A DNA stretch of 64,000 bases, from contig NMRA01000316.1 of the NCBI GenBank assembly GCA_002633005.1, positions 55,999 through 119,998 of the forward strand, written 5' to 3'. Below the pieces are notes generated by a model. It was given only the letters and a program-made list of their open reading frames with translations, was not told where the DNA came from and did no database searches. The translations under genes were made by a program, and so were the position numbers. The stretch comes from Phoronis australis. Taxonomy: Eukaryota > Animalia > Phoronida. This document shows, in pieces, positions 35,095 to 64,000 of the stretch (positions within the stretch are counted from its first letter, which is position 1; every line of letters begins with the position of its first letter).

Positions 35095-35338
35095 TTAACA
35101 ATAGATGTTGTCTTTTTGCCCGTTCATGTTGACTTGGTCGAAGTACACGTTGGTCATATCTCGAAGCTGCCTTTTGGCATAGGAAAGACCAACAATTCCG
35201 CTGTCTGGGTCTTTGTCGTTGTAGTAAACTTTCCAATACCCGACGTAAATGTCGATTTTGCTGTTTAATTCAGCGAAAGCCCTAATCATGTCTGTGCAGC
35301 TCTTGCAAGGAGACAGCTTTGTAAACAGGTGGACCTTT
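35095..35338 (-). CDS. Secreted AID/APOBEC-like deaminase (SNAD-like) gene A, coding exon 2
   Basis: Acceptor cgttttcAG at 35340-35339, phase 2. Reads (R)KVHLFTKLSPCKSCTDMIRAFAELNSKIDIYVGYWKVYY...NIYC*, carrying the SPCxxC zinc ligands. Joined to exon 1 it gives 600 nt = 199 aa plus stop. Confidence 0.92.
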
Positions 35339-36219
35339 CTGAAAACGAAGAAACAGTTTCTCTTATATTATGTGATTAGCAAGAGGCTAACGGAAAGAAG
35401 GAAGAAGAAATCCAAGAAGAGAACGAGAGTGGTGGAGGATTGAAGGAGATGGAAGGGGAAGCGGGAAAAAGACTCATCCATGAGAGGGGATGCAAAGGAC
35501 GGAAGAACACGAGGTACACTGAAACGGGTAGCAGTAGGGTGGATGTGATTGGTAAAGCGAGCATCATTGCCGCAAGGAGCAGAAAACATCGTGACCGGTC
35601 GTGCAGTCGCCACCAACCTCCCTGCCTTCTGCTGTGTCGGCATTGAACTGAAAAGAAGTACAGGTCAAACAAGTCGGTACACTTGATTGACTTTGCCGGT
35701 AATACCAGGTAAACAGGCTAACATCCAGTTTGGAGTAATACAATATCTCCAATTCTGCTCAAGCTTAATTCGTTTTTAATAAGTTGTGTGGGGAGACCAC
35801 GACGTTTTCATACCTTTTCGATTCATTCCATCGGTAAAAGACCCACCTGCAAACTGATGCTACTACGTAGGCCTATAAAAACTCCCACGACCCCCACACC
35901 CCACGGCCCCCTCGACCCACAACCCCGGCGGCCATGACTCACAACCACCTCGACCCAGGACCTACACTATAGCAATAGATGTATCTTTGCGGTTTTTACA
36001 CATTTCATAATCATATATTACGTCGCTGAATGACTTTTCATCAGACATACCTGCACGCGCGAGTGCGGTGTTCTGGGTCAAGCCTGGTGGTTAAAAACAG
36101 AATGTGGCGTGACAACCCTGTTCTAAAATAGCGCGTTATCGTTGTCACAAAAACTAGTAGTTCCACAAGCGGTCACCAATGGCCCTAATCTACGTGTACA
36201 ATATAAATTCAAGAAAAAA

Positions 36220-36520
36220 ACAACGGTTTTAAGACTTGGCATGTTTCGGTGTCATTTATTCAACACCATCCTCAGAAGTGATAATACAGTGGCCACCTAG
36301 TTAGGCCCAGCAACAAGTAATGAAGCACAGGTACAGTCAGTTACAGGGAGTGACAACGAACTAGAACAAGAACAATGACAACCTGTGGTGTGCCAGTTGC
36401 CTATTGAGATTGGGCGTGCCCCAACTGATGTGTAAAGCCTTAAGAATTTTAAGCTCCTTTGTTGTTACTGCCTGGTCTATTACTAGAAATGCAAGACTGC
36501 GAAACTATACGCAAGATACC
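36220..36520 (-). mobile_element. Penelope-like retroelement 3' fragment in the gene A intron
   Basis: IDQAVTTKELKILKALHISWGTPNLNRQ resembles a GIY-YIG endonuclease C-terminus and is followed by a pLTR-like tail with a hammerhead core. Confidence 0.7.
36234..36279 (-). ncRNA. Minimal type I hammerhead ribozyme motif (Penelope-associated), cleavage triplet mutated
   Basis: Minus strand ACTT-CTGAGGA-TGGTGT-tgaataaatg-ACACC-GAAAC-AT-GCC-AAGT: CUGANGA and GAAA cores, stem II GGTGT/ACACC, stem I ACTT/AAGT. GCC replaces the expected GUC. Confidence 0.6.
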
Positions 36521-36822
36521 GCCGTGTATTTTAAATGATTTTGGCTCACCTACGTAGATTTTTTCGCCGCGGGACCGTAAATTGAACTCTACCCAGTAAA
36601 TTATTTGTTGATTTAATCCAGGTCGACAAAGTTTGGTGCTATAGATACATGGCCAGGATTAGTCTTAAATCTGGTTTTGTTAAACCACTTTTATAAAACC
36701 AAGTGCCTGGTAGAGTCGTAGATCTACTGCAACCCATTAATCTCTTAATTTAGAAATGTTGACAAATTTGCTTCCACACTGTAAAATTTGTATGTAAAAT
36801 CAATGCAATACATTTAACTTAC

Positions 36823-37178
36823 CTGACCGTTTGACCGTAGTCATGCATTAGTTCTGGAAGCTGAGAAAAGATTTGCTTTTCGGCGTGGGAAGTTGGGTTA
36901 AATTGTCGAATTCGAGCCCAATAATTCATGGTCGGTTTAGGATGGAGCATGGAGAACATCAAGTCCATGTCGTAGCAAGGAGTCAGTTTATTATTGTAGC
37001 CTGCACCTGCCTTGTTTAGCGTCAAGACAGCAAACTGCTTGTCCCGGGTTTCTCTGTAGGTGAAAAAGTGACCCAGTCCATTGAGATACTCTTCGTCGAA
37101 TGTACTCAAGTCAATGTATGCTCTAATCTCAACAAGGGTGCCGAGGATAACAAGAGCGAAAATAGCACGGGTAAGCAT
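36823..37178 (-). CDS. Secreted AID/APOBEC-like deaminase (SNAD-like) gene A, coding exon 1
   Basis: Signal peptide MLTRAIFALVILGTLVEIRA, QFAVLTLN strand, NYWAR...SHAEKQIF (HAE motif). Donor AG|GTAAGT at 36822 is phase 2. An acceptor ttgtttcAG lies just before the ATG. Confidence 0.92.
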
Positions 37179-37594
37179 CCTGAAACAAATAAAGACGGGA
37201 CATGAACTTTCGATGTACCGACGAAATGTTCACAGCAGTAAAAAATATCGTGTACCAACAAGTAACCTAAATGTGTATTTATTGAAAAGTCTGCCACGGT
37301 ACGCCGACCAACAACAGTGCACATTATTGGAAGTGATCTTCAAAATACGAGTTATTAAGCAAGGATATCAATCAAGACGACTGAATGATACCCTCTGACA
37401 CAGCGCCACCTAAACTGAAAAGTGGCCCTGTGGAGACATGGTGAACTACACACGATTTCCGTGTCTGGGCAACAATGCGCATGCTTGGTCAGAAGTTTAC
37501 CTTTCACATCGCCACCACGTGCACACACCTTCTATGCACTGAGCTTATTTGGGCTTAAGCCACTGGATCAGGGTTTCCTTGGTTTTGTTTACTT

Positions 37595-37664
37595 CGTTTA
37601 AATAAATTACAGTTACATGTACAGTCAAATGTGGTCGCCTTATTATGTAACAGGAAACTGAAAG
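37595..37664 (-). promoter_or_regulatory. Putative gene A promoter: TATTTAAA box and ISRE/IRF-like GGAAACTGAAAG
   Basis: TATTTAAA on the minus strand (~37604-37597) lies ~100 bp upstream of a candidate 5'UTR donor AAG|GTAAAC (37500). GAAANNGAAA motif at 37654-37663. These are short motifs and may be chance. Confidence 0.3.
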
Positions 37665-38362
37665 GGTTTATCCAGATTTCAACCAATGGGAATGACCAGA
37701 TCTTGGGACGCCGGTTTCATTACTAAGTTAACCAAGCCATGTTAAACAGCATTTCACAGTGCTACCTTTCGCAGCCCTGTGAAATTGTGTAAGTTAGTAT
37801 AGAACAACCATGCTACATTACTAGACCTGCATCACTAAAACCCCACGAGACCATCGTGTGAATTGAGGAGGGGTGGTTAACTCCCCAGGTATATAGGCAG
37901 TCCAGTGTTCTACGCCACATTGAAGAAAACAAACATTGCGATGCATATCTCAGAAGGTAGCATCTGCATTTTCCCACCACGTTTATTGCTTCGAATTCTG
38001 GGAAGAAATTTCGACAAATTCTTCAAGATTGGCGGTTTTTGTTCATTGAAACTTCTTATCAGGCAGAATGTCGACTTAAACTTCAAGAACTCACTGTCAC
38101 TCCGTTGCTTTTTGAAATCTATAGGCCCTATATAACTGCAGGTATTATTGAGGGTGCTGAACGTTAACACCGTGGAGAACGCATTGTCGGGTGTAAGGGT
38201 TCATGAAATGTTGCTATAGCGGCGGAATTGCTCATGAGAGCGAAATCTTAAGAGTGCATGGGATTGAAGTTATTGCACTGCAATCACTGTTACGTATGTA
38301 ACCCGAAACGAGAAAAAGCTTTTAGCTGAGACTTATTTATGCATTGACATGAATAGAAATTA

Positions 38363-39487
38363 ACCCCGGTGTAAAACAGATACCACGGAGTGGAAAACAG
38401 ACTACCACACATTCAAAACGGCTAACCAGCCCAAAACACGAACTCCGACCCTTAAAACAGGAGCCCAGGGATCATAAAGAGACGCCCAGGGACCGAAGAA
38501 ATACCCCTCCTGCACTTTCTGCCAAACATTTTTGATGAAAAATAAATCTTTCTACTTTAAATAGCTGTTTGGATATGAGAACTCTAAAAAAATTGGCGAT
38601 CTACGTTACTCTGCTGCTAAAGTTCAGTGTTGTGCGATCGTTTACATCTGCCTTCGGCGCATTTCGGAATATTGCGTCACCTATTGGCTAGTTTCTGTTT
38701 CCTTAATTCTTCAATCACGTGTTCTTCCACTTACATAACGCTAACTCGTCGTGAGAGATCGTCCGGAGTTGGTATACGGTGCAACTCCGGACGGTCTGGG
38801 CTCAACAGAAAACCCCAGTTCTGCTGTGAGTCTACACCAACGTGATAAACGAGAACAGTTGTACTTGCCGCGTCAGCTGCAGGTATCATTATCTCTTTTA
38901 CGACACAAAATGTGTAACTGGGCAAAGCCTTTTCAAACAAGTGTGCATAAACAAGTGGAGCGTGAGACCCCTGAGGTCCCTGTCAAGTCCTCTCGACAAT
39001 TCTACATGTACGTTATGGGTGCGTACATATCACAACAAGCTTATCAACAATGACACCAAAAAGTCGAAATAACATTTTTATTGATCATTTTTGAAAATAT
39101 ATTTGGAGACACTATTGAATAATATGAAATTAACTAAATGTTCACCGAGATGACAACGCCGGTGCTGAGAATATTGTCGATCGTGTTGAAAATCGACCAT
39201 GACAGACAAGTTGCTCAAGTTTTGCACATAAAAATTAAATATTACGGCCAATGTATTTAAGCTACGTTTTATTATTGATACTTTAAAAGAAAGAACAACT
39301 GGCAAGTACTTGGGAATGCGTTAACTCAAAGTTTGAGGCTACAGATAACGGTCTCATTCAAATTTTCCGGATCCCTGTCCCATCCCCTGGGATTCCTGTT
39401 TTAAAGGTCACACTTCGTGTTCTTCGGGCTGGTTAGCTGTTAAGGTGCTGTTTTCCACTCCGGAATACCTGTTTTATATCCGGGTTC
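38363..39487. mobile_element. Unclassified element with ~110-bp imperfect inverted repeats enclosing a decayed ORF
   Basis: CCCGG..TAAAACAG..CGGAGTGGAAAACAG..GCTAACCAGCCC..ACACGAA..GACC.TTAAAACAGGA.CCCAGGG at 38363-38470, with its reverse complement at ~39385-39487. Confidence 0.6.
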
Positions 39488-41711
39488 CAGTTTCGACTTT
39501 TCTCGAAGAGTGTGAGGATTGACTGTTTCATGAAAATATGCTAAGACTAAAATTCTAGTGAAAGTCTGCCTACAGCCTAAAACGAATACCAAAACTCCCC
39601 AGCCTGCTCCTAACTGGATCTTAAAAACCCAACCCGCTCCCTCCCTCCCCCCGAAACAACGCAACACGACGCGTCATCTGTCGAATTCATTGTGATCGAT
39701 CCGGATGATCACATTCGGCAAACAGGACCTTAAGTAGTGATCTACGACATCAGTTCATTAGACAACAACAGAACCTGTTGTCTTTCTGGTGACTGCCGTA
39801 GGTACTTGTATCCTAGGTTCGGATATTATGGCACGGGACCGGGCAATCGGTGTACTGTATTCCTTTATTATATTGCCAAGTACAATTAATTCAAACAGTT
39901 ATGGGTACATGTCTAAGATTTGTAAGAAAGATAAGTGCCTGGCCCAGTTGGGCTTATTAGTCACTATTACTACAAAACTATGCCTTAGGACTTTGTGTTG
40001 CACGCTTAGCACGAGAACTGGAAAGTTATGAGCAGAGCCTCTACATGTATATGATGATACAGTACATGTTCATGTATATATGTACAGTGAATGTTGAGAC
40101 GTCTTTTCCCAACAGTAGAATTTTCGGGCAGAAAAGATTCATTTAAACGACGGGTCTGGATAGCGAATTTAATTTTTATCTTGGGCCTTGCTAATTTTGT
40201 TGTGGTACAAAATTATTATTTACCTTCCCCACATAGTTGCCTGAATTGTTTCGAATATTCTGAATAGCACTCGCAATATTTAGAATGGCCCCAGTTGAGT
40301 ACTTACATGAACCTCTGGCAGTGCTTGGTGTGCAACAGATAAACATATGGTAGGTTATTTATCTCCTTTTTGTACAAAAATGCCCCTATAGCGCATTCTG
40401 AATCACGTGGACATGCAAAATTGACATGACAAATTGCGTTTAAAATATACTGGTTAACTCAAACAATCTTCAAGCCTGCTTTACACCAAGTCGGCCATCA
40501 GCAAAGCGTTTGACGAACCACCTACATGTACATGTCTGATTATGAAACCGAATGGTGTTACTTGTTTAGATTAAATACATGTACATTTTGTATGATTTCT
40601 AGGCTAGCAGAGAAGGTACAATTCGTTTTTGATTGAGTCCAGTTTCGATAACGTGGTTCGTCGTGATGACTCTTTTGTGCATCGAGCGTTCGTTCAATGT
40701 CAAGGTTTTCCAAGCTCAGAAATCGCAATATTGAGCAAGAAATGTATCCGTCTGTTTTACTTGGCCTAAAATTGAAGAAGTCATTTTGTTCGGCGGTTAG
40801 GCGGACCTGCCTTTGGACTTATTTTGCACTCTTCATTCATGCCGCCCGGACGTTCGATGTTGTTATACGCGTTCGTGGTACGACCAATTGCAGGCAGCAG
40901 AAACCGTAAGTCTTGACCTTCTGGAAAAGGCGAGGACATGGTAACAATGAAATGAAGCTAATAGACGCATTTAAAAAGAAATGAAAAAGTCGGAGAAAAT
41001 TCCGTCAGAAAGCAATTTAGTTGGAAAACTTTATTACTCGTCGCCTTTGGTCTCGATTGATCACCATGGAGATACACGTAGGTCCATATTCATGTATCAG
41101 ATGCTAGGTTGTAATAATTATATAACGTGTCCTAATTATCGGTACAACTCTAAACCTTCGTTTACCCTTAAGGTGACATATCGTGAAAAAGACATCACCT
41201 GTATTATTATACAATATACAACATGTTTGCTGATAAAGCCCTCTGCTTTACAATTCCAGTAAGTGCGTATCCTCATATATTTTCATGTACATGTAAATGC
41301 GTGTGTCCCTTTTTCATGTTCCTCTGTAGTTGCCCGTTCCTACACTCATGTACATGTACACTTCAGGCTAGCAGCCAGCATTGTGTGTGTATGTTTGTGT
41401 GTGTGNCGGATTTCTAAAACGGTGGACCTATGATTGTATTTCGCAAACGCTGGCATTGTAAAATTTTCTGTAGACCCTTTTACAGCTGAACTCGGCGGAA
41501 GGGAAACCTGTATACACGACAATGACTCTCAGCTACGTTTTCTTGAGATGAGACGGAATTCGTTGACCTATCCCACAAACGAGGATGCCAAGACGGTTAC
41601 TCGTAAAATGAGTTTCAAATTCCGGTGTAAACACCAGTTCTCTTTCTGGATTTCTGAGCGTTACCCTCTGCCAAACGTTCGAACCATGCGTGCTTAAATG
41701 AGTGATTAAAC

Positions 41712-42298
41712 CAGTGGCGGATTTAAGGGGGGCAAGGGTGCCATGACACCTCCTAAAATTCTTTCAGATTCCATTTGGCAGTTTGGGGTGTGAATGTCTG
41801 ACGAGCAGAATCCTGGCTAATGCTCTAACCTGCCCCCCAACTCAAAATCCTGGATCCGCCCCTGTAAACTCCATGATCTTAGGGGAATATTAGTAGGAGA
41901 ATAACTTGACGAAATTTTTGTCAGGGTGTACACGTATAAGAAATTCTGCGCCGTGTTCCTTGGGTTACTCCTAGCGTTCCGACGTACGCGGTGGTCGGTG
42001 CAATAACATAAAGTGTTCTCTAATCGTCTGCACGATCCTGTCATCCACGCAAACACATGTGGCCACTTGGCAAAACTGCCGCGTAGGGCCCGAAGTTAAT
42101 ACGTACGGTGCTTTGAATAAGAAGCAAAATCGAAACTAGTGCCAGGGGCGGATCCAGGATTTTGAGTTGGAGGGGGGCAGGGCAGAGTATTAGCCAGTAC
42201 TTTGCCCGTCAGATTTTCGTACCCATGTACTGCCAAATGGAATATGGGAGAATCTTAGGGGGGCATGGCCCCCTTGCCCCTCATTAAATCCGCCACTG
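41712..42298. mobile_element. Two CAGTGGCGGAT-type MITE copies in inverted orientation (41712-41864, 42142-42298)
   Basis: CAGTGGCGGATTTAA...GGATCCGCCCCTG and CAGGGGCGGATCC...AAATCCGCCACTG. Confidence 0.7.
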
Positions 42299-43014: not shown

Positions 43015-43137
43015 CAGGGAAAGTAAGTAGGTCATCACCATAGTTGTAGGGTCACTGAGCTCTGCTGCTGATTCTCTCAATGACATGCAGAGCTCAGTGA
43101 CCCTTCAACTTTTGTGATGACCTACTTACTTCTTCTG
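43015..43137. mobile_element. Fold-back MITE (Tc1/mariner-like) forming a long hairpin
   Basis: ~55-bp arms CAGGGAAAGTAAGTAGGTCATCAC...GGGTCACTGAGCTCTGC and their reverse complement; the right end is followed by TA. Confidence 0.75.
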
Positions 43138-49705: not shown

Positions 49706-51784
49706 AGGAGAATGCCACCCGGTTTAATTGGTCATTTTTACCGTTTTAATCAGTCTATATCCATATCGCCTCTTATACGGTAGACCTCACCTTGGCGAGA
49801 GGTGTCGCGTTAACGTGTGAAGAAGGTGAGAAACGACGCAACGACGTCAGTGGTTCGTCTGCAGAGTGAATGCCGCTACACTGTATATCGCGGTGCATCG
49901 TTCCCGCTTGTCCAAACTGTGAAGCTGCTTAGAAAGCAGGTATATTGTTTTTTTCGACTTCCTCGAGAGCCCGAAATCTTTAGGAAGTGGTTCAGGGTAG
50001 TGAAGAATGAAAGGTATGCTGTTAATAGCAAGTATGAGGCCGTGAAACATCTCCGTGTCTGTGGGCGGCATTTCGTCAGCAGTGATTTCTCTGACGAATT
50101 CCGGCTTAGCAAAGAACTACCCTTACGTTCCGTTGCCTGTGTACAAATGTATATTCATGGCGCTTCTCTAGTAATTCTTGATCAGTGTATTCCGGTTCGA
50201 CCTGATAGCCGGTAAAACCTAACGATCCGACCGGTGAAGTCTTCGTCGGATGAGCTCTCGACTACGTCAGGATTGGCGCCGGGCAAGTTGCCATGTAGAC
50301 GATTATTATTCTGCGTTCTGTTTCAAAATAAATTATTCTCAATCTAGCCAATGCTTATAGAAAACTAAAACAAAGTCTGCCTCATTAGGTAGAATTTGTA
50401 ATGCCTTTGGAATAGTCGTGAGTGCAAGGTTTTGAGAAGCCTGTAATAAGCTGCGTAACCGGTTTTAGATGCAATAAAAAGTTATTGACCAGGCACCGAG
50501 GCCGTGTGAGCGCATGCTAATTCAGTGTTTGCTGACAGAAAGGTGTTGTGAAACAGTAACACGATTTTATATGCTATGGTCACATGTTAGGGGAATCTTT
50601 ATTTTGATATACAAATACATTATTCATATCTTTCTTACTGTACAACCTTTGCCCTGACGGGTCTGTGGAAGGAAACCCTGATTTTCCGGCCCCCGACAAG
50701 TAAGTAGATTTTCAGTTTCATGTCTAATTCACATAAATAATTACTTGCACATTATTTTTTGGCTCACTATTATAGTCCTTTTGTGACAGCACGTTTAGTT
50801 TCCAGCTGAAGCTGTGTTATGGTCGGGCTGTCCAGTCCCCGCGGCCGCGACGGGCCTCAGGGTTCCGAGCCACTGGCGGGGAGTAACAAGCGTTCTGTGT
50901 GTTTAAAACTGAAAAAAACACATGTCTAAAAAGTACAACACTCAGCCATGTTCCCCCGTCTGTATTTCACGGAAGAATGATTCGAATTTATCACCCAACA
51001 GACCCAAACTCCCGCTATCGACCACCGTGAATTGGCCTACCGAACACTGTAGGCTACGGTACGTTCAAATACCTATCAATCCGTAACAGTAAAATAAAGT
51101 AACACGCACGTTAGTCAAGAACTCGATGCATTTGAAAGGGATTTACATCGAATTTTGGTTATTTATCGGTGTAAAACGGTGAATTCAAGTGATAAGTTGA
51201 CACCAGTAAGCGTGTTGTGAACACCTGAACAGGCTGCGTTCGAACCGATTACGTCATTGATTAATTTCAACACCACCGTTTGCCGTTAGGTGTCAGGTAA
51301 AACAAATAAACTTGCTGTTATCGATTGGAACTACATTACGGCGTTTTCGCGTTGCTCCCAACTTGTTCGATTCTATAGCCCAACAACAAGTTGGGAAGTT
51401 TACCCCTTAGCCAGTATCTTACACGACTGATTAACTCCAGTCTGGCATTCATGGTTGGAGGGCCAGTTCTCTTTTGGTCGATAATTCAGTGCTCTGATCT
51501 CCAATAAGATCATCTCTAGCCTCACTGAGCTTTGCTGTTAAAAATAAAAGTTAAGTTATAACATATTTGAACATAAACCAATAGCATCTCTGAAATCCTC
51601 GTCAAATGATGATCATGTTTAGTTTTTGAATCGCCAAAATCACCCAACTGCAACCGAAGTTATGATAAGCTAGATGTTATCACACGCTCAGAACCCCATT
51701 CGTCTGGTAAAGTCACTGAACGGGAAAACGCTGTCATGTCGATCTAAATTGATACAAAATAGGTTGTTTTTATGGCATTCTCCT
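49706..51784 (+). mobile_element. Second non-autonomous Kolobok copy, inverted relative to 32185-33844, with a nested ~400-bp insert
   Basis: TTAA|AGGAGAATGCCACCC ... GGCATTCTCCT|TCAA. THAP remnant FFRLPREPEIFRKWFRVV...LRVCGRHF. Colinear with the first copy apart from an IR-bounded insert at ~51335-51738. Confidence 0.88.
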
Positions 51785-51825
51785 TCAATGTCTTGCATCT
51801 GAGCGTTGAGAGACAACGAGACAAT

Positions 51826-54382
51826 GGGGCTATTCGGAGAATTCTCCTCGCGGTGTCTCTGCTGTACTAGTGGTGATTAAATTGCGCATGCGTGGCTGTC
51901 TGCATGTAAACAACTGGTAAAAGGTGGAATTTTTATCAAAATACGTCGTCGCGCTAAGCCTTATTATTGCTAATTTCCCTGGTGCAAGTCTTCGACAGGT
52001 GGCCACAAATTCCCAAAAGACCTAAGGTTACTATATTCGTGGACAATTGTGGTCAACAGGGTCAACTAACTGACAAAAAGTGTGTGGATGCTGAAGCCCC
52101 GTGCGTGCTTTATGTCTATGACTATGCAGTTCCATTCGGAGGCTACACAACATTACTTGGTAAGTTTTTAGCAATCAGTTTCTATCAACATCGTTCGGTG
52201 ATGTTATCCCCACCAGTTACCCCACCGAATAACAGTTTTATTGAGTGGAACTAAGTGTTTCTTTTTGGAAACTCACCCGATGCCGGGTAGGCTAGCAGCA
52301 CATATTCATATTGGCCTGGGTGGGACAGTGCTCCCAAAATAAGAGGTGTATGGTACATGATGCACAGAAATCAAGTGTGACTTTTTCACAGCAGTTTCTC
52401 TTCAAAACTATGCTGTTTCCAATAAAATTCTCTAGATGAGTGAGTTTCCTTATTTTATCGTGGACCCCACCCCCAGGACCACCAGCTCAGTTATCGAATT
52501 AACATGAATAAGCCTTAATTCAGTAAATGTCGTAACATTGCATTGGAAAAAAATTGACACCTAGAATGAATTTTACTTGTTGAGATCAGAAGCAGATTTT
52601 AAGTGTCATGAAAAATACACATTGTTAAATCACTTTTAGCCTGTTTCACANNNNNNNNNNNNNNNNNNNNNNNNNNNNNNNNNNNNNNNNNNNNNNNNNN
52701 NNNNNNNNNNNNNNNNNNNNNNNNNNNNNNNNNNNNNNNNNNNNNNNNNNNNNNNNNNNNNNNNNNNNNNNNNNNNNNNNNNNNNNNNNNNNNNNNNNNN
52801 NNNNNNNNNNNNNNNNNNNNNNNNNNNNNNNNNNNNNNNNNNNNNNNNNNNNNNNNNNNNNNNNNNNNNNNNNNNNNNNNNNNNNNNNNNNNNNNNNNNN
52901 NNNNNNNNNNNNNNNNNNNNNNNNNNNNNNNNNNNNNNNNNNNNNNNNNNNNNNNNNNNNNNNNNNNNNNNNNNNNNNNNNNNNNNNNNNNNNNNNNNNN
53001 NNNNNNNNNNNNNNNNNNNNNNNNNNNNNNNNNNNNNNNNNNNNNNNNNNNNNNNNNNNNNNNNNNNNNNNNNNNNNNNNNNNNNNNNNNNNNNNNNNNN
53101 NNNNNNNNNNNNNNNNNNNNNNNNNNNNNNNNNNNNNNNNNNNNNNNNNNNNNNNNNNNNNNNNNNNNNNNNNNNNNNNNNNNNNNNNNNNNNNNNNNNN
53201 NNNNNNNNNNNNNNNNNNNNNNNNNNNNNNNNNNNNNNNNNNNNNNNNNNNNNNNNNNNNNNNNNNNNNNNNNNNNNNNNNNNNNNNNNNNNNNNNNNNN
53301 NNNNNNNNNNNNNNNNNNNNNNNNNNNNNNNNNNNNNNNNNNNNNNNNNNNNNNNNNNNNNNNNNNNNNNNNNNNNNNNNNNNNNNNNNNNNNNNNNNNN
53401 NNNNNNNNNNNNNNNNNNNNNNNNNNNNNNNNNNNNNNNNNNNNNNNNNNNNNNNNNNNNNNNNNNNNNNNNNNNNNNNNNNNNNNNNNNNNNNNNNNNN
53501 NNNNNNNNNNNNNNNNNNNNNNNNNNNNNNNNNNNNNNNNNNNNNNNNNNNNNNNNNNNNNNNNNNNNNNNNNNNNNNNNNNNNNNNNNNNNNNNNNNNN
53601 NNNNNNNNNNNNNNNNNNNACGACTTGCAACATTTCAAGGCATGAGTTAAGACTATTCAGTCACTGTGAATTCGGAAAATGTAATATATTTTCGTGGTTT
53701 TACAATTGATACAAGTAGCAAAACAGCATATCTCCTCTGCACGGTACAAGCCTTCAAACCTAAAAACCAAAGGTTACGTGAAAACTGACGTGATAGATTT
53801 CCATTTCAACGTGTAACAGATTGCCAGAAGACATATGATAGGGAGTAAACAAATAGTCTAATGCAATGGATATTTATCACTCACGTACCCTTTACCATTG
53901 GGATTGGATTGTAATCTTAACTCATTAACCTGTATCGAGTTGACAGCATAAACATTCAGCATTGATTGATGTAACTATCACTGATAAACTTTTAGAAATC
54001 ATTCCAAACAATAATAATGCTTTGATGTACGAAAGATCCCGATTGCTACGTCAAGTATCGTATCACATATCACAACATATAAAGATTAACCAGACTCTGG
54101 CTGGCGACTGACTGCCGCGAAGTCGACATCGGCGAGTGCCTCAGTTAACAGGCATCGGTAGAATAATCATGGAATAATCGTAAAAATAATCACTTACCTT
54201 TGTATGAGGTCGTGCTTACTTCCCCTCATAGAAGCACCCTTTTTACGCAATCTCAGATTCAGTTGGCACGGCTGCAAGCTATTTCACCATGTCTTTAAAG
54301 GGCTCGCGAAATCGAGGCTGTTAATCTATCACCACTAGTACACGCACGCCCTCTAGTTATTGTAGATTTTCCGAATAGCCCC
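51826..54382. mobile_element. Non-autonomous TIR element with AT-flanked GGGGCTATTCGGA ends (ISL2EU-like); spans the assembly gap
   Basis: AAT|GGGGCTATTCGGAGAAT ... ATTTTCCGAATAGCCCC|ATT. The superfamily is inferred from the termini only. Confidence 0.6.
52651..53619. other. Assembly gap (969 N)
   Basis: Run of N; the ORFs called across it are artefacts. Confidence 1.
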
Positions 54383-54466
54383 ATTCCACAAAGGACACCT
54401 ACTTTCACACGTTGGAGGGTTGAGTGCCAGTGTTACTTTCAGTAGTCCTTACTTTTTTCCAGAATC

Positions 54467-54849
54467 ATGCTCAACTTGAAAATTACCTGTTTGACCTTAC
54501 TGACAGCGTGCGCTGTCGTTAAAGGATATATCGGATTGGACAAATTCGACGACAGCTATATTAGAGGCGTCAGTACGATGTTCTATTATCCCGGACTAGT
54601 GAATCACCAGTATGCCGTAGGCGTTTTAAACACGGGAGGCGACTCTTCGGACAACCCACTATATCCTTGCTACAGGGAAGGGGGCGGTAAATACCTTGAC
54701 AAGGCCAGGTGGTATACCATGGATGCGCCCATTCGTTTGCAGAACTTCTGGGCGCGCGAACGTATTAAGGGCGATGTGAACATTCACGCAGAGATTCTGG
54801 TTTTGGACGCCCTCCCTGACGTAATGCGACAGTTTGGTGCTGCTGTAAA
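54467..54849 (+). CDS. Secreted AID/APOBEC-like deaminase (SNAD-like) gene B, coding exon 1
   Basis: Signal peptide MLNLKITCLTLLTACAVVKG, QYAVGVLN, NFWAR...IHAEILVL. Phase-2 donor AA|GTAAGT at 54850; acceptor ttttccAG at 54461-54462. Confidence 0.9.
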
Positions 54850-57800
54850 GTAAGTTGCTAACTAAAGTATAGGTTACACCCTTGGTACACGAAGAAACAA
54901 AACTGATTACAGCGTTAACGTGCCTTCACACCAGGTCAAGTGATCAGCCACCTTGTCTGACAAATCTGCGCATGTTAACCGTCGTCAAACTTCAGGGCCT
55001 AATTCTCGAAATATCTATATCCAGACGTTGTTTTGGGGGGAGCGGTTAACCTTTAGTAAACCTTCGCTAAGAAACGAAGCCAAAAATTAAAAAAAAAATC
55101 TGTTGTTGGGTTTGTACTTAATGGTTGGAAGACCGTCTCCACCTTTGTTTTACAAGTGCGATACTGAGGAGTTGTGAGGAAAGTGCGCGGAGAGCCGCAT
55201 TTTTCAGACATGAAAAGGTGTGTTTGTGAGGGCTGGTAACAAGCACGTGACTGAGAACGTCTCTGCAGGCCTGTAGGAAGGCAACAATTATTGGGGGGTT
55301 CACAAACCATTTAGACTTCGCCAAACTAGCCCCCCCCAACTCCGCCACCCCTGTGCTCCCGATGCCACCATACTTGAACCGAATCTCCCACGTCCGCCCT
55401 ACACGTACATGTAGGTGGGGGACAATCCCGGGATGCAGCGATCAAGAGTCGAGTAACAGTGGCCCAACATTCAGAGTAAGAATAGGCCTAGGACCAGTAA
55501 ACTGACCGGTAGCGAAGAGCTGCCTCAAGTAGCTATAACTTAGATCTAACAGTGTGAAAATACGAAATTCCTAACGAAGTAAACCTAGTTGCTGGTCAGC
55601 TTACATGTAGCAGTGATTCAGTTGAGGCAGGCAGCTCGTGCAAGCCCTTCGCACTGGCTCTAAGGCCAATTTTCGTTTTATTGTGATCCAGCATGGGAGA
55701 ACTTTATTTTATTATGTTCATTCTTTGAAGGGTTTTTTTCGAAAAGGAGAGGTACCGGTGTCCTGGTATAGTGCCTTTGGGGCTGTTTCAAAATCTATCG
55801 TTCAAACATGACGACCGACAGTCCAGTTTCTGGTGGTTGGGGAAAATGATACAGCGTGATTCACAAAAAATTAGTCACACTTCGACGCCTGAAGTTCAGT
55901 TCCTGTGGATCTCTGAGATTCTGCACGGTTTTATTTTTTTCTTAACGTCGGTGCGCCAGTCATGACCTGCACGGGAATTGAGCAAGCAAACAATTCAGTT
56001 TTAAAGAACAAAAATCTACTGCTCAAAACTACGAGAAAATAAAAACACCAAGTAAGTACAAAGACAACTTTTCCAAGCAACGAGTTTAATTTTATTTATT
56101 TAAGGAATTTTAAAACTTTCTTCGATCTATTGTTTTTGAGTCTGAATTTCATCAATGTCTTTAAGAGTTATTTTAGATTGGCAAACATCTTTTAACTGTA
56201 CTTTACTATTTGAGGATCGGATTACAGAGTTTTACAACTTCAGGCTGCAATTAAATTCACTGAAATATCATCATTTCTGAGAAGATTAGCTTGTAACTGT
56301 CAAAAGTCATCCATGAATCTATCGATTTTCGTAGATGCATAAACAAGTAAAATAGAAACCAAAGATTTTTTTATCAAAACTAAATGTTATAAGCAATTTC
56401 CGCAGGCATGCTCGCAGATTTTTGACGGGTAACCGGAGGAACATAGGTGATGGGGCATTCGTATTACGGTGTATTTTTGCTAATTTTAGAGGTAAATGTG
56501 CCTATAATGGTTCACGAGGTAAATTTGAACTCCACTGACAAAAATGCTGAAATAATTGTATATGATTGCGAGAGTTCTTTGTTTACCCCGTTCGACATGT
56601 ACGCGGTCATCAGAAATAGTAGCACAGACAGCAGTGTTTTCCGCATGTGAAAATTCATTACATGCAAATCATAGTAACCATGCACGCACCAAAGGGGTTT
56701 CGGGAGGCCTCGCACGAGCCGATCCCCACATTTGGCGAAGTGGGCAAAAAGGTCCGCCCCAGAGAAACAAAAAGTCCGAGCAAATAAGACAAAAGTCCAC
56801 AGGAACTCGGCGCGAAAGCACACTTCGTAAGCCTGAACATATTGGCTCCGTTTTCTGTAGTATTCGTTGATGTTATTCTGTAAAAGGTCCGAGTACCGGA
56901 AAGTTTGGACCCCCTATAATTTAGGTTGGGTGTGCGCATACATGTAGTGTCAATAGTGTCGTTGAAGAGATTATTGCCGCTTGCGCCAAGGATAATGTTG
57001 CTGAACCGCTCTCACTATTGCCAACAATTCTGCGCCTCCAAGGGGTCGTCAGCCTTCTCGCTGCCTACTTTCGACTATCCTGACGATCTATGTACATGTG
57101 CGACCCACTACAGACGACGACGATGACTCCAACGTTCCCTGTCGGCGACAAAGACTACAAGGCCTACGAATTTTTTAAGGCGTAACCAATTCCAACCGTC
57201 GATCCTTGTTTTAGCAGTTGGTTACACGAAACTGTTAACCATCTTAGGAATGAATGATTAGACTTCCTTGACTATGGCAGTTGCCTCAGGTTTTTGACTG
57301 AGTGAGTTCAAAAAAGTCAAAATGACGTCACATTAAACAGGTGACTAAAGCGCACGGTTTGTTGTCACGAAACACATTTTCACCATCACTAAGGGGTCTA
57401 TTTTGTGAAACGTGACTTAAGACTTAGTCACTAAATTGGTCTTATGCTGGACACAACTATTTCCGAAAAAAATATTTAAAAAGTCCGAAGTATCGGAGAA
57501 CATACAGATAGCTGATAGTTATCGAAATAATTTATATAAATAATTTTAGACGCAGCTGCTCTCATCATTACTGGGCTAAAAATTAATTCAGCAACTGTGA
57601 CGTGAAAGCACGAGACAAAATGTGTGTTTTATGTCTTTATTCATGTAACGCACCCCAGGAAATTGGATGTGTTTTGCTGAAAGCATGGGATATCCATTCC
57701 TCTATCAAAATGGCTTTCTAGTAAGTAATTCGGATATACATGTGCAAGTCGCTAGGAGCTCCTAGACTTATGGAAACATACCATTTACATTTTGGCGTAA

Positions 57801-58137
57801 CGCATGCAAACACAACGTACTATAATAATAATGTTTCAATGCAAGTTTGTGCATTTTTCACAAAAATTAATATGTAGAAGGTCGTTAAGTTGTGGTTTTT
57901 AAAACGTCCAATTTGAAGGGTAGTTATGTTTAATTGATTCTGTTTTTCATTCTGCAAGCATGAAATTTCAAGTGAAAACCAATGTGGTACCGTTAATGTT
58001 GCTAGACGCTGTAAATCGCGACGCCGGGTGTCTTTTGGAATATTCAATCCTGGTGTTCGGTACAAGTTCACCGGTACGCTCTTTTTAAAATCATATAAAC
58101 AGGAAATATTTATAGTTATGCACCTGATATATTTCAG

Positions 58138-58407
58138 AGAAATCCATATGTACACACAACTGTCCCGTGCGAGCGATGCACCGATCGTATCAGAGATTTT
58201 GCAAGGGGCCACGGAACTGTGAAATTCTACATTGGTTACGACTACGTATTCACACACGAAGGAGACCCAACAGGTCAAATAGCTTTGGACTACGCCAAAC
58301 AACAGTTTACACCATTGAAGAACCTGTGGTTCGATCAAGTTGCTGATCCTACTAAGGGACCCTTTATGAGCTGCAGTTATCCACGCGGCCAAAACACCTT
58401 GTTCTAA
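58138..58407 (+). pseudogene. SNAD-like gene B, coding exon 2, with a 1-bp frameshift (pseudogene or sequencing error)
   Basis: Acceptor atttcAG at 58136-58137. Reads (K)EIHMYTQLS; restoring one C at 58164-58166 gives PCERCTDRIRDFARGHGTVKFYIGYDYVF...FDQV...CSYPRGQNTLF*, colinear with gene A exon 2. AATAAA at ~58430. Confidence 0.85.
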
Positions 58408-58449
58408 TGGCATAAAATATTGATTGAAAAATAAAACTGGCAGTGGTAA

Positions 58450-61400
58450 CCTAACCTAAGTTTACCGCAAGCTTGCAGCAAACATCTCTATGTCCTTATA
58501 TGGAACAGTTCTTGCAACCCAGCCGCACACATTGCTGCAAGCTTGCCGCAAACATCTCTATGTCCTTATATGGAACAGTTCCTGCAACCCAGCCGCACAT
58601 ATTGCTGCAAGCTTGCCCCAAATATCTTCATGGGGTTATATAGAAGTTTCTGCGCACCATCAGAAAAAAATATTGCTGCAAGCCTACAACATACTTGAAT
58701 TGTGGCATGAATAATTTAATGCAAAAATGCCAGCTGACAAATACATAATTTTTATTGCATGCCCGCTTGTTAAAGCAAGAAAATACACAGTCAGCTGCAC
58801 ACTGGATTTAACATGATAATTTTCAATCTGATGTATAATGACTAGAAATGAAAACAAAATCACATGACAATGAATAACAGAAGCTATAAAAGTGTCTACA
58901 TTGGCAATTAGTAATAATACTTGCATTACAATCAAAATTGTATCTTGAGAGAACATCTTGAATGTATGCCAAGCTTTAATTACAATATACCTAGATGTTT
59001 TATTCTTAACGCACAACAAAATCTATAATAATTGCAACAACGATATTATTTACTTGACTAAACTAACAACAGCAACACAGAGCGTTGAAATGCACCCAAC
59101 AGAGTGTTTATTAGGATTGAAAATACCTCATTACTTGTCAACTGAAAAAAAACACGCTTAACAATTAGAATTCTCATGTTCATCTAAAATACTTGAAAAC
59201 TGTCGAATACTTCATCGATTACTATTTTTGCTTCCCAATATGGTTTCATGATACATCAGTCTACTGAATGGGCTATCATTGAACTTGTAGGCCTTTCTTG
59301 AAATTTGCAATATTTCGACTATAGCGATATCATCCAATAACATCATTCATTTATCTAAGGCATCAACCATAAATTATACCTTTCTATTCTACAATATTAC
59401 CATGGTGTTGAAAAGAACAACTGCAGAGGTTATATCCAGTTATTACCATACTAGTGGACGTTCTAAACACATTCTACTCCAGACTAATCTGCATTACAGC
59501 CATCGTAGGTGTTCCATAGGGTTCATATGGGATGATCGCTAGTGTTTTCATCCGTGTTTGTTCGAGCCAACCTTGAGATGCTGTGTACGCCATTTGTTCC
59601 GGTGTTTTCAACTCAAACTTGTTGCCTCGTAACCTCTGCAGTGTCTCTGGCTTTCATCAAGTACATTATGTCACTCAACATTCACAAACCTAAAATATGA
59701 ATGTCATTTCACTTTCCAGAAAAAGGCATTTGTGATAGCATTATTAGAATCTCAATTACGTTTTAAGTCGGAACTTTTGCTCTTCTGCTCATGTATGAAC
59801 AGACAGTTAAACTTGTGTTCAATAGTTTGACTGCAGACTGAGAATGCGCATGACGGAAGGTGATGGCCGTAAAAACACCTACCAGTAGTTACAATATGCT
59901 AATCTTATTTTGTGCCCAATAGTTACCATGCATTTAACCAAAATAAAAATTTGTTGTTCCTATTGCGAATCAAACAGTCAGAGAGCGATGTGAAAATTGA
60001 CACAAACTTAAGTTTTACAGTCTCAATTAAGTGATTATTTTGAAGGACTGGTTACATGTAACTTGACAACGTTTTGGAAACTAGTTGATTCTGGTCTCAA
60101 CCCCAGTTAACTCATTTGAAATCTGTGCTGTACTTTTCAATAACCATTATAACCTAAAATTTGGCTGAATCAGTAAGAAAATCAACTTCCTTTTGTTTGT
60201 AAGACCAAAACTACTGATTCATGAATGAAGTCTAAGTAATTTTACTTAACAATCACGTCAATATGAATACAATTTTAAATTCAAAACTCACATCCATACA
60301 GTTCTTCAGTTATCCATGTAGAGTCGAGGCTGTACCAAAACCGTTTGAATTTGGTTCAAGTGAATGAAAGCTATAGGTCACTTCCCAGGCATGTAACCTT
60401 GACAACCACATGCTTTCCTTGATAACAATCTCACCAGATCAACATGTGGCTGGGCTACCATAATTTAAATAAACATTCAATAGCCCTAGAGGCATTAAAC
60501 ATTAATGTATTCCAAGAGGCATTCCTTGAAAACAGTCCTAGCAGTTCAACACGTAGCTGGGCTAGTATGATTAAAATAAACAATAACCCTAGAAGCATAA
60601 AACAATATTATAAGGACACTAGTGAAATTAAATTTCTTATTTTTTCATAAATAATGTGCAATACCACAAGAATCCCGAGTCATATCCATAGCAGCTGACA
60701 GACAATATTTTGAAAAATTGTGAGTCTTCAGAACAATGCTAAATGTCCTTGAAAAATCAAAATGAGTAATTTTCGGCAATTATTTTTGTCCGAAATAGAC
60801 AAAATTTTACTGTAGCTACAGACTGGCAGCTACCACCTGATTATGAGATAATTTCACGTGTTGGAAAAGTACAAATTGCTCTAAATGCTAATACTTGCAC
60901 ATTTGGTAAAACTGGATCATATATTTGTGTATGGTTTGTATTGATATTTATTGTGCTTGCTTACACAGCATGCAGGCAACACTGCCTTTGTTGTTTTAAA
61001 GCAATTGCATTTAATATTTTGCTGTACTGACTTTGACAGCAGTATGAAAGGAAAATGAAAACTTGTTAAGTATAGTGACTGAATAAAAAACAAAGAACAT
61101 ACAGATGCAGTTATATTCTCTAATGTTTTAGGTCGCTTTTGGTCATCTTTGAGCATTTGCTATTTTTAACAATGTAACTTACCCAACAATAGGTCCCATT
61201 TAGGTAAGTAATCTAAAATAAGTAACTGCCCTGCTTAGGTTCTGGGATTTGAGGTTTCTATGAAATTTAGAAAATAAAAACAATTTCACAATTTCTAACA
61301 TTGTCACAATATTAATGCTAACACTTTAAACATTGAAATTTACTGCAAATTTCGTGCAAGCACTTTTTCACCTATTCCTGAGAACACTTTTCACCAATAT

Positions 61401-61792
61401 AGTTTCCTGCAACTTTTCCGCAAACACTTTTCACCAATAAAGTTTCCTGCAACTTTCCCGCAAACACTTTGTCATCAATAAAGTTTCCTGCAACTTTCCC
61501 GCAAACACTTTTTCATCAATAAAGTTTCCTGCAACTTTCCCGCAAACCACTTTTCAACAATAAAGTTTCCTGCAACTTTCCCGCAAACACTTTTTCAATC
61601 ACCAAGTTTGCCGCAACATTCCTGCAAACTTCAGTGTTTGCAGCAAGGTTGCGGCAATGTGTGCGGCTGAGTTGCGGGTAGCGGCAAACTCCTGCAAACT
61701 TTGCGGCTAGTTTGCTGCAAACAAAATTGTTTGCCGCAAGCTTGCGGCATGTTTGCTGCAAGCTTGCGGCAAACATTGTCTTTTGGTATGGG
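58450..61792. mobile_element. Non-autonomous EnSpm/CACTA-like element with GCAAGCTTGC subterminal repeats
   Basis: GCAAGCTTGC(A/G/C)GCAAAC repeats at 58460-58690 and 61600-61780; ~40-bp tandem AAAGTTTCCTGCAACTTTCCCGCAAACACTTT at ~61400-61600; right end TTTTGGTATGGG. The left terminus is degenerate. Confidence 0.55.
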
Positions 61793-62299
61793 AAGACCCA
61801 ATCAGTTGCTTTTTCCGGTTAACCGTGCTAAACTGGCGAAGTCAATCAAGGGGAGTCATCATGAAATTGTATTCTGACCACGGCAATAAATGAGACACCC
61901 TCCACTACCGGCTGTGTGATGACAAAAATGCGGAATTTCAGCCATAAAAGTACTTTTTGAAGAAAAAAAAAATCGCAGAGCTCACCAAACGTGAGAAGGT
62001 CGTAGCCTTCTTTTTTACTCCGTAAAAATGTAATCTTTGGTCATTTTACACAAGTGAACCGTGTCCTTTCGGTTTTTGAACGTTGAACTATGACTTCGGA
62101 GAGAGGGGGTAGCGGGTTGAGAAATGTTTTTTTGCACACCACAATTAAAGTCCATGAGAACGACAGGCGTAGCTCGTTATAACTGAGAATAGCACGTGTA
62201 ACGTTGAGTAAATTATTTTTGGGATACATTGCAAAAACGTATTCATATGTCAGATACTTGACTTGATGATGTAACACGTAACTGGATCCCAACCACCCC

Positions 62300-62720
62300 T
62301 CATTGGAGAAAGCAAGAGACCGATCCTTACCAGATTCAAAGAACATCTGAAACTAGACAGACCAACGGCCGTGGGAGAACATACATGTATTTTGGCGACT
62401 GAGCACACCATCTCTCTTGCGTAATCCAGGATCATAGCCATGGAACAAAATTGGTATACTCGTAAGCTCAAAGAGGCCATAAACATCAACAGTTAGCGCC
62501 CCCTCTTAAACCGAGAGAGAGGACTCCACCTACCCCCCCCGTGTACTCNCCCCCCCCCCCCCCGTGTACTCCAGCATTCTTAACGTAGGTAAGGCGGGAA
62601 ATCTCTCATTCATCGACAAACACCTGGCGGACCGGGCCGAAACGTCTGCCAACAACCAACTACGACTCTAAGTAAGTGATGCTTCTGGAGACCAATGACG
62701 AACCTATTCTCCAGAATTCA
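62300..62720 (+). mobile_element. Penelope-like retroelement fragment (GIY-YIG C-terminal part and tail)
   Basis: IGESKRPILTRFKEHLKLDRPTAVGEH...SRIIAMEQNWYTRKLKEAININ.*RPLLNRERGLHLPP with stops, followed by a ...GGCCGAAACGTC pLTR-like tail. Confidence 0.8.
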
Positions 62721-63565
62721 ACAAATGAACGTGCTTGCAAAGCTATTTTGTTAAAACATAACACAAGACAAATAGCAAAATATGCCTAAATTATAAACCT
62801 ACTAGCCAAATCCCAGATCTCATGAACAGGCAAGATCATACTTCATTTGCAGTAATGTTACTGACCACCGGATGGCGTCTACACGTACATGTATACTGTG
62901 CTTGCATTCATGTTGACATTTATCCGTTCACTTACACTTTGCCATAATCAAGTGTTTTTCTACATGTACAATGGCCCTCGTACGCATTTAAATGTGTAAT
63001 GAAAAATCTAAGCCGGTCTATCGTAGTAGAGTAAACATCGTCTTTTCAAAGTTCGTTCGTAATCAAACAAGACAAATTACCAATATCCGGTTCAGACACA
63101 TGCTAATGCTAATTTCCTAAAAATGCGGGTCTACGAAAAATTATTTAACGTGCATGTGGTTCTGTTCACCCCAGAGGTTTGTCGTGACGTCGAAAGTAAG
63201 GTAAGCGACTTCATCAACAGTTTGACAACTTGGTTTATGTCACGAATTATCTCCTCGTACGAATTATTCAGACATGCCGATTTTATAACTATGTGTTTTT
63301 CTTTTACAAGTGTCGACCAAAAGTGTTTTATTATTGTTATTATGTTTATTATTATTACCATTATTAACTAATATTATTTCTTAAAAATAACAGGTTCGGG
63401 ATCATGTCACTTCTGAGCTGCGACATCGTCTTTTACAAAGAAAAGTACGGCACTTTATCCGGGTTATTGCTTCTAATATTATTTTGAAAGTTCCACAAAC
63501 GGTCACCTACTTCCACACGTTGAATGAATGTGCTATTAACAGTAGTCCTTACTTTTTTCAGAATA

Positions 63566-63948
63566 ATGATGAACCTGAAAATTACCTGTTTGACCTTACT
63601 GACAGCGTGCGCTGTCGTCAGCGGTTATATCGGCTTGGATAAATTCGACGACAGCTATATTAGAGGCGTCAGTTCCATGTTCTATTATCCCGGACTAAAG
63701 AATCACCAGTATGCCGTAGGCATTTTAAACACTGGAGGAGACTCCTCAAAGAACCCACTCCATCCTTGCTACAAGGAACCGGGCAGCAAATACCTTAACA
63801 AGGAAAGGTGGTATACCATGGATGCGCCCATTCGTTGGCAGAACTTCTGGGCGCGTGAACGCATTAAGGGCGACGTGAAAATTCATGCAGAGATTCAGAT
63901 TTTGGACGCCCTCCCTGAAGTAATGCGACAATTTGGTGATACTGTAAA
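63566..63948 (+). CDS. Secreted AID/APOBEC-like deaminase (SNAD-like) gene C, coding exon 1 (exon 2 lies beyond the window)
   Basis: MMNLKITCLTLLTACAVVSG signal peptide, QYAVGILN, NFWAR...IHAEIQIL. Phase-2 donor AA|GTAAGT at 63949. Differs from gene B exon 1 at 19 of 128 residues by manual count. Confidence 0.92.
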
Positions 63949-64000
63949 GTAAGTTGCGTAATTAAAGGTACTGATTACACCCTCATTACACGAAAAAAAA

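Follow-up and report, generated by a model that had tools for sequence, protein, structure and literature searches.

Which kind of protein is encoded by a three-gene cluster in the 64,000-nucleotide window of contig NMRA01000316.1 that we analysed, and are its genes functional? A first-pass annotation of this window (in which all positions below are counted from the first letter) had proposed that the three genes, here called A, B and C, encode AID/APOBEC-like deaminases, each with an N-terminal signal peptide. The interpretation that we favour, and regard as probable, is that the locus encodes paralogous single-domain zinc deaminases of the AID/APOBEC type, ~199-216 amino acids (aa) in length, which are predicted to be secreted, would deaminate cytosines in nucleic acids outside the cytosol, and would serve as defence effectors. 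This interpretation rests most firmly on gene A, for which RNA evidence is available, and on the C-terminal half of the encoded domain.

Gene A is expressed and spliced at a phase-2 junction

The spliced open reading frame (ORF) of gene A, assembled by joining its exons with a script, encodes 199 aa, with HAE at residues 98-100 and PCKSC at residues 129-133. Its first coding exon contains the signal-peptide-like segment (residues 1-20), a Q-F-A-V strand, an insert carrying Cys68, and the motifs NYWAR and HAE, and its second exon contains KVHLFTKLS-PCKSC, helix 3, strands 4 and 5, and a short tail to Cys199. Outside PCKSC, Cys68 and Cys199 are the only cysteines of the protein. The donor that separates the two halves reads GTAAGT; because the coding sequence from the ATG to this donor measures 356 nucleotides (nt), the donor is in phase 2.

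To assess these predictions, we used four runs aligned to positions 34800-42000: a contig set that we guessed to be derived from RNA (X5) and three sets of RNA-seq reads from the same organism (X6-X8). The joint that connects 35338 to 36823 was found in all four: one X5 contig of 891 nt (depth 1115.6) carries it, as do 53 reads of X6, 30 of X7 and 162 of X8. The ends of the joint read CT..AC on the plus strand, and thus GT..AG on the minus strand. In X6-X8, the depth of RNA in the exon bins of gene A was 39-213 (42-213 in the first coding exon), while most intron and intergenic bins nearby were at or near 0; the signal therefore does not reflect DNA carry-over. Nearly all exon reads had their first mate on the plus strand, in agreement with a stranded library of minus-strand RNA. 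Past the AATAAA signal, depth dropped from 39-175 (bin 35041-35281) to 0.7-12 (bin 34800-35040). Together, these results demonstrate that gene A is a real, expressed gene that is spliced at exactly the phase-2 junction predicted by the first-pass annotation.

The RNA reads also revealed a non-coding 5' exon. In X8, six reads joined 40307 to 37179, and a further 57 reads had loose ends at 37184, the consensus of which matched only 40312-40325 on the minus strand. From this match and the X8 joint, we placed the end of the 5' exon at 40307. Splicing of this exon creates a second in-frame ATG immediately before the first.

A rare joint between 35338 and 37011, carried by three reads and confined to X6, would drop 188 nt of the first coding exon and HAE with it; this joint reflects either occasional mis-splicing or a minor isoform. 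In addition, two short stretches, ~36246-36486 within the gene A intron and 41789-42000 in intergenic DNA, were covered by RNA from both strands, and the reads there had numerous loose ends and variants. Both stretches behave like multi-copy transcribed repeats and not like parts of gene A.

Genes A, B and C are paralogues

The relationship among the three genes was evident from tblastn comparisons, in which exon 1 of gene A matched gene B (6e-18) and gene C (9e-20), and exon 2 of gene A matched exon 2 of gene B (5e-14). The exon 1 translations of genes B and C are 85% identical, and their DNA is 86% identical over 517 nt; the protein identity of gene A to either is 32-36% in exon 1, and its identity to gene B in exon 2 is 39%. 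By these comparisons, homology among the three genes is far beyond chance. The same approach, applied with all exon translations, gave E values of 1e-13 to 1e-20 between gene A and genes B/C, and found no fourth copy in the window.

Common to all three paralogues, as had been proposed, are a signal-peptide-like N-terminus, HAE, a GT donor in phase 2, and an acceptor just before the ATG. Genes B and C each have this acceptor 4 nt ahead of the ATG, followed by a 383-nt coding exon and the phase-2 donor. The first exon of gene B holds the signal-peptide-like segment and the motifs QYAV, PCY, NFWAR and HAE. The second coding exon of gene C lies beyond the end of the window.

A comparison of exon 1 between genes B and C gave nonsynonymous (dN) and synonymous (dS) values of 0.086 and 0.26, respectively. 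The resulting dN/dS of 0.33 indicates that both genes have been constrained for most of the time since their duplication. The cluster had been interpreted as a lineage-specific expansion under birth-and-death evolution. Our data support the first part, in that the paralogues represent an expansion and genes B and C have been under constraint, but the only evidence for birth and death is the possible frameshift in gene B described below, which may be an assembly error. The head-to-head order of gene A relative to genes B and C depends on the scaffolding, as a gap of 969 N is spanned between them.

Matches of the C-terminal half to AID/APOBEC families

We found that exon 2 of gene A matched four Pfam families of this group: SNAD4 (28.1 bits, 2.4e-6), APOBEC2 (26.5 bits, 7.6e-6), NAD1 (26.0 bits, 1.1e-5) and APOBEC_N (23.6 bits, 5.7e-5). 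Only SNAD4 scored above its cut-off (27), with the other three just below theirs. For exon 2 of gene B, the matches to APOBEC1 (20.6 bits, 5.2e-4) and SNAD4 (19.9 bits, 8e-4) were all below cut-off. A profile built from the second exons of genes A and B matched APOBEC3G (8.3e-5), 3F and 3H in PDB, and every match down to an E value of ~0.2 was an APOBEC3; the alignment to APOBEC3G covers strand 3, PCxxC, helix 3, strand 4 and loop 7. The AlphaFold model of the exon-2 half (pLDDT 61) has the order strand-helix-strand-helix-strand, as in the deaminase core; compared with structure sets by Foldseek and VIA-align, this model gave generic matches only. The Pfam matches and the PDB profile matches thus uphold, for the C-terminal half, both the zinc-deaminase signature and the membership of the AID/APOBEC group that had been claimed.

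The signature itself consists of HAE, present in all three copies, and PCKSC in gene A or PCERC in gene B. In gene A, 28 residues lie between E100 and P129, in agreement with the HxE-to-PCxxC spacing of 27 in AID and APOBEC3G; the range in the superfamily is about 23-28. It is the HAE motif, together with its spacing and conservation, that places the N-terminal half in the fold.

Several observations weigh against our interpretation. None of the three exon 1 translations matched a Pfam deaminase family at an E value of 1 or below, and the N-terminal half had no match in PDB at an E value of 10 or below and no usable match in the ESM Atlas. The AlphaFold model of the exon-1 half was unusable (pLDDT 34). 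The Trp of the SWSPC motif, which lines the cytosine pocket in classical AID/APOBECs, is absent: the sequence is LSPC in gene A and in the frame of gene B that begins at 58138, and TVPC in the open frame of gene B. Finally, the EIHMYTQLS and PCERC segments of gene B lie in different reading frames.

The same searches bear on a different role for a secreted product, namely one without a part in polynucleotide defence. The proteins could act on free nucleosides, nucleotides or a small amine, in scavenging or signalling, or could be offensive toxins or venom components. Consistent with such a role, exon 2 of gene A matched the Toxin-deaminase family PF14424 (21.9 bits, E 2e-4), and its nearest neighbours in the ESM Atlas were clusters of bacterial PF14424 deaminases, at a weak score of 0.82; the missing Trp before PC would also fit. 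However, scores below 0.9 in the Atlas are leads only, and the match to PF14424 did not reach its cut-off (29.6) and was outscored by the AID/APOBEC families. These families far outscored the cytidine/dCMP deaminase family PF00383 as well (12.7 bits, E 0.12, short of its cut-off of 25), and the PDB matches, as noted, were APOBEC3s throughout. We therefore consider a small-molecule or toxin role unlikely, and continue to favour deamination of nucleic acids.

The N-terminal segments are predicted to direct secretion

We judged the signal peptides by inspection and by a hydropathy calculation. An n-h-c pattern, with small residues at positions -3 and -1, was found in three of three copies. The hydrophobic stretch spans 12-13 residues, and its 11-residue Kyte-Doolittle maximum is 2.94 in gene A and 2.45 in genes B and C. 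The stretch is followed by cleavage-type ends (IRA, VKG and VSG), each directly before a Tyr that would open the mature protein with the conserved sequence Y-I-(D/G)-L..F-D. This pattern and these maxima agree with the annotation, which had placed signal-peptide-like segments on all three genes.

A protein with such an N-terminus could also be retained in the secretory pathway, either as a resident of the endoplasmic reticulum (ER), the Golgi or the vesicle lumen, or as a type II membrane-anchored protein, and could edit the nucleic acids of viruses that replicate in membrane compartments or pass through them. The hydrophobic N-terminus is the sole evidence for targeting, and Krishnan et al. 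2018 raised the same alternative for SNADs (PMC5889660; our statements about this paper and about PMC11004436 refer to the parts of them that were available). Nevertheless, a hydrophobic core of 12-13 residues is short for a membrane span, the small residues at -3 and -1 occur in all three proteins, and neither known C-terminus resembles KDEL (gene A ends in ..NIYC and gene B in ..NTLF). Retention thus appears improbable to us, and secretion remains the reading that we prefer.

The reading frame of gene B and the alleles of gene A

The exon that follows the HAE exon had been described as carrying H(L/M)(F/Y)T..LSPCxxC in both gene A and gene B. This is correct for gene A, in which KVHLFTKLS-PCKSC is in frame, but not for gene B as assembled, in which the two segments are in different frames. 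A strong acceptor in gene B, TTTCAG directly ahead of 58138, leads into EIHMYTQLS, which is identical to KVHLFTKLS of gene A at four of nine positions and differs by conservative changes at four others. The resulting frame misses PCERC by one base and reaches a stop after 28 codons. In the DNA alignment, gene B is one base short of gene A in the run TCCCG at ~58161-58165. The frame that contains PCERC is open for 88 codons, and its stop aligns near the end of the gene A ORF. If an acceptor AG two bases downstream is used, such that the exon begins at 58140, gene B has an intact ORF of 216 aa with a recoded strand 3. The flaw may be a homopolymer assembly error (in the C run at ~58163-58165) or a very recent frameshift, or it may be rescued by the 58140 acceptor. 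To be read through, gene B as assembled requires either a 1-nt correction or an unusual acceptor; it may thus have become a pseudogene very recently, or may have been misassembled. We also noted a 211-aa open frame on the minus strand (57820-58455), antisense over the second exon of gene B. No Pfam family matches this frame, which probably arose by chance.

Gene A is polymorphic. The RNA reads contained at least 19 coding variants in its 600-nt coding sequence, with 11 amino-acid changes and 8 silent changes among those listed. The variants were present at ~50% in X6 and X7 and at ~10% or ~70% in X8, and a subset was fixed in the X5 contig; these differences in frequency from run to run point to at least three haplotypes. 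Among the variants listed, none falls at His98, Glu100, Cys130, Cys133, Cys68 or Cys199, and the ORF is intact in every allele seen. At position -1 of the predicted cleavage site, one allele replaces Ala with Gly, which is also small. RNA editing was considered as the source of the variants and rejected, because they include all kinds of transversions, range from ~10 to 70%, and differ by run; they are better attributed to alleles or to a near-identical copy. Such a second copy of gene A may exist elsewhere in the genome.

These data allowed us to evaluate whether the cluster is decaying, with some or all copies being pseudogenes or catalytically dead relics. The separation of the strand-3 and PCxxC segments of gene B would fit this idea, as would the finding that pseudogenes are common in AID/APOBEC arrays (PMC5889660). 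In contrast, gene A combines an intact ORF with strong expression and correct splicing, and its alleles preserve both the ORF and the catalytic residues. Likewise, the dN/dS between genes B and C argues for constraint, and the 88 open codons downstream in gene B are in line with either an assembly error at a homopolymer or very recent damage. We consider decay very unlikely, and functional deaminases remain the interpretation of the cluster that we regard as probable.

Relationship to SNADs and other deaminases

Searches for relatives outside the window were largely blank. Word-based protein searches with exon 1 of gene A, exon 1 of gene C, and the exon-2 alignment gave no match. A HMMER search with an exon-1 profile against 1.84 billion representatives returned three matches at E values of 0.001 or below, all of them spurious matches to repeat proteins. 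None of 22 pattern matches in 185,579 prokaryote genomes, and none of 84 in viral contigs, was confirmed as a relative. One of 107 pattern matches in metagenome contigs passed confirmation; it proved to be a string that is out of frame within the gene of a bacterial outer-membrane receptor, and was rejected as spurious. As these collections are mostly prokaryotic and metagenomic and poor in animals, the blanks indicate that the family is not widespread in microbes or metagenomes, and do not indicate that it is unique or that relatives are absent from animals. The strings F-W-A-R and Y-W-A-R had no occurrences in the available part of the 2018 supplementary alignments (PMC5889660), which we count as weak evidence.

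In the classification of Krishnan et al. 2018 (PMC5889660), SNAD1-3 are vertebrate families and SNAD4 is found in the sponges Amphimedon and Haliclona; a 2024 paper still lists SNAD4 as sponge-only (PMC11004436). The proteins studied here resemble SNAD4 in having a signal peptide (predicted in our case), one AID/APOBEC-like domain in which HAE and Cx2C occur, and a lineage-specific expansion into multiple copies. SNAD4 is also the top Pfam match of exon 2 of gene A, and has the best summed score over genes A and B. However, the SNAD4 model does not recognise their N-terminal half. Two of the six SNAD4 hallmarks in the available part of Table S1 (PMC5889660) were found: the signal peptide, by inspection, and Cx2C, as CKSC in gene A and CERC in gene B. 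SNAD4 has a Trp in place of the loop-7 Tyr, whereas the corresponding column, as located by the APOBEC3G alignment, holds Tyr (KVY) in gene A and Phe (YVF) in gene B; a Trp occurs three residues before this column in gene A (GYW), with none in gene B. Similarly, the SNAD4 Trp at the end of strand 5 is missing from NVYFDQV of gene A and from NLWFDQV of gene B, in which the Trp is mid-strand. SNAD4 has an acidic end of loop 7; the candidate counterparts here, NDKDPD in gene A and HEGDP in gene B, are acidic but short. For the charged residue before CxnC, gene A offers K126, three residues before P-C, and gene B has Q or T depending on the frame, in a column that is approximate.

The available descriptions of SNAD1 and SNAD2 of cold-blooded vertebrates (PMC5889660; PMC11004436) reveal other parallels: a predicted signal peptide, an insert in the N-terminal half of the core, the loss of the usual helices 5-6, additional cysteines for which disulfides have been proposed, clusters of several copies, and evidence of expression. 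Unlike these families, our proteins lack the C---CxxC---C signature and have no room for the neomorphic strands 6-7, with 11 residues after strand 5 in gene A, 24 in gene B, and a single Cys among them in each. The active site of SNAD1 is Cx3C in Table S1, as opposed to Cx2C here, and no SNAD1-3 Pfam model was among the matches of our exon translations.

Assignment to the SNAD clade, as the first-pass annotation had proposed, or to any other named clade does not follow from these data. The signal-peptide-like N-terminus and the top rank of SNAD4 for gene A are compatible with SNAD membership, but SNAD4 leads by only ~2 bits, APOBEC1 ranks first for gene B, and several SNAD4 hallmarks are missing. 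We file the locus as encoding AID/APOBEC-like deaminases with a predicted signal peptide, with SNAD-like as a working term. Judged from sequence features, they probably form a separate clade beside SNAD1-4, with a trimmed-down domain.

Among the classical AID/APOBEC-like deaminases of invertebrates, SpAIDL of sea urchin, LaAIDL of Lingula, and the Lop-Ech-Cni and Lop-Ech-Zn2 groups belong to the same superfamily, show lineage-specific expansions, and have a proposed innate-immune role (PMC5956068, PMC5889660). SpAIDL and LaAIDL deaminated cytosine in single-stranded DNA (ssDNA) in E. coli assays (Liu et al. 2018, PMC5956068); the terms 'signal peptide' and 'secreted' each have 0 occurrences in the text of that paper. 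In contrast to the Lop-Ech clades as described in the available parts of these sources, the proteins studied here have no WP before strand 1, no NYS before CxnC, and no second Zn site marked by SC in loop 7. Like these proteins, in which a signal peptide is predicted, the secreted deaminases of dictyostelid slime moulds have a signal peptide and an insert that follows helix 1/strand 1; they occur at tandem multi-copy loci, and a role in immunity has been proposed for them (PMC5889660). They differ in their Cys-rich C-terminal domain, which is absent here, and our window contains ORFs of animal type (THAP and P2RX7_C).

Bacterial toxin deaminases of the BURPS668_1122 / PF14424 group are likewise secreted or exported, contain HxE and PCxxC, and gave the weak matches described above. 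Those matches remained below cut-off, however, and the locus has spliceosomal introns, predicted eukaryotic signal peptides, and no relative among the 185,579 prokaryote genomes. Toxin deaminases of the BURPS668_1122 type were reportedly held to be ancestral to AID/APOBEC by Iyer and colleagues in 2011. Particular to the present cluster are the Y-I-(D/G)-L..F-D mature start, N-(F/Y)-W-A-R in strand 2, the intron between helix 2 and strand 3, and the tail of only 11-24 residues, with one Cys, after strand 5.

Proposed mechanism and significance

Our results suggest the following model. The N-terminal segment, with one basic residue, 12-13 hydrophobic residues and small residues at -3 and -1, would direct co-translational entry into the ER and would be cut before Y21 of Y-I-(D/G)-L. 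Cys68 and the C-terminal Cys199, both of which are kept between genes A and B, would then pair in a disulfide and so pin down the short C-terminus. In the predicted active site (gene A numbering), His98, Cys130 and Cys133 would hold zinc while Glu100 shuttles a proton, converting C to U by hydrolytic deamination. By analogy with what has been proposed for SNADs, the target is likely to be pathogen RNA or ssDNA, in vesicles or outside the cell.

A bolder proposal, which we advance tentatively and with less confidence than the model above, is that the cluster represents a fifth, uncatalogued clade of secreted AID/APOBEC-like enzymes, carried by an animal outside both the sponges and the vertebrates. 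Its members would consist of a minimal domain without helices 5-6, held by one disulfide from the strand 1-2 insert to the C-terminus, and would be highly expressed, carried as several divergent alleles, and deployed as an extracellular mutator against pathogens.

Secreted AID/APOBEC-like deaminases were predicted in 2018. In the literature searched, their hosts are limited to cold-blooded vertebrates, sponges and slime moulds; we found no substrate or mechanism for them in the parts of those sources that were available. At ~180 aa in its predicted mature form, the product of gene A is compact; the gene is strongly expressed and polymorphic, and its model is verified. The locus is thus tractable for asking what role a deaminase has outside the cytosol. 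Should the host not be a sponge, the cluster would close the gap that separates SNAD4 of sponges from SNAD1-3 of vertebrates, a gap relevant to the proposal that secreted and classical forms diverged early. Practical interest in small, divergent cytosine deaminases also comes from base editing, where they could serve as parts.

Features of the window

The coordinates of the three genes and of the gap between them are collected in Table 1.

Table 1. Positions of genes A, B and C, their parts, and the scaffold gap in the 64,000-nt window.
Feature	Position	Strand	Remarks
Gene A	40307..35095	-	Spliced, RNA-supported
Gene A non-coding 5' exon, 3' end	40307..40325	-	Donor GT at 40306-40305; RNA reads
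Gene A first coding exon	36823..37179	-	Acceptor AG 37181-37180, ATG 37178, donor GT 36822-36821
Gene A intron, 1484 nt, GT..AG	35339..36822	-	RNA joints
Gene A second coding exon	35095..35338	-	TTTTCAG before 35338; TAA stop 35097-35095
Gene A polyadenylation signal AATAAA	35033..35038	-	Sequence and RNA depth drop
Scaffold gap, 969 N	52651..53619	.	Between gene A and genes B/C
Gene B	54467..58407	+	Paralogue
Gene B first coding exon	54463..54849	+	Acceptor AG 54461-54462, ATG 54467, phase-2 donor GT 54850-54851
Gene B second coding exon	58138 or 58140..58407	+	TAA 58405-58407; AATAAA ~25 nt downstream
Gene C first coding exon	63562..63948	+	Acceptor AG 63560-63561, ATG ATG 63566/63569, phase-2 donor GT 63949-63950

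The remainder of the window contains only repeats and ORFs that resemble domesticated transposons (two THAP and one P2RX7_C), and scans for Rfam families and tRNAs gave no matches in the window. Together with the GT-AG introns, these animal-type ORFs are the only pointers to the invertebrate-like genome named in the first-pass annotation. The THAP zinc-finger ORFs (33468-33731, minus strand, and 49814-50215, plus strand) lie one in each arm of an inverted duplication of ~1.65 kb with 80% identity (32181-33846 and 49704-51788). One arm is located downstream of gene A, at a distance of 1.3 kb, and the other upstream of gene B, at 2.7 kb; the duplication is either a THAP-bearing mobile element or what is left of a segmental duplication from which the cluster arose. 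A 151-aa ORF at 22047-22502 on the plus strand matches the intracellular 'ballast' domain of the P2X7 receptor (P2RX7_C, E 6.7e-15), with no receptor body seen nearby.

Single N characters occur at 15787, 16300, 17621 and 28471, each flanked by direct repeats of 160-320 nt with 94-99% identity (for example, 15465-15786 and 15788-16102). From their appearance, these joins are probably unmerged overlaps of contig ends, and the tandem repeats there artefacts. Two further stretches, 58450-58700 after the 3' end of gene B and 61300-61830 before gene C, look repetitive, with similar short ORF translations in several frames. In a self-comparison, 61383-61629 gave overlapping self-matches offset by ~40 and ~80 nt.

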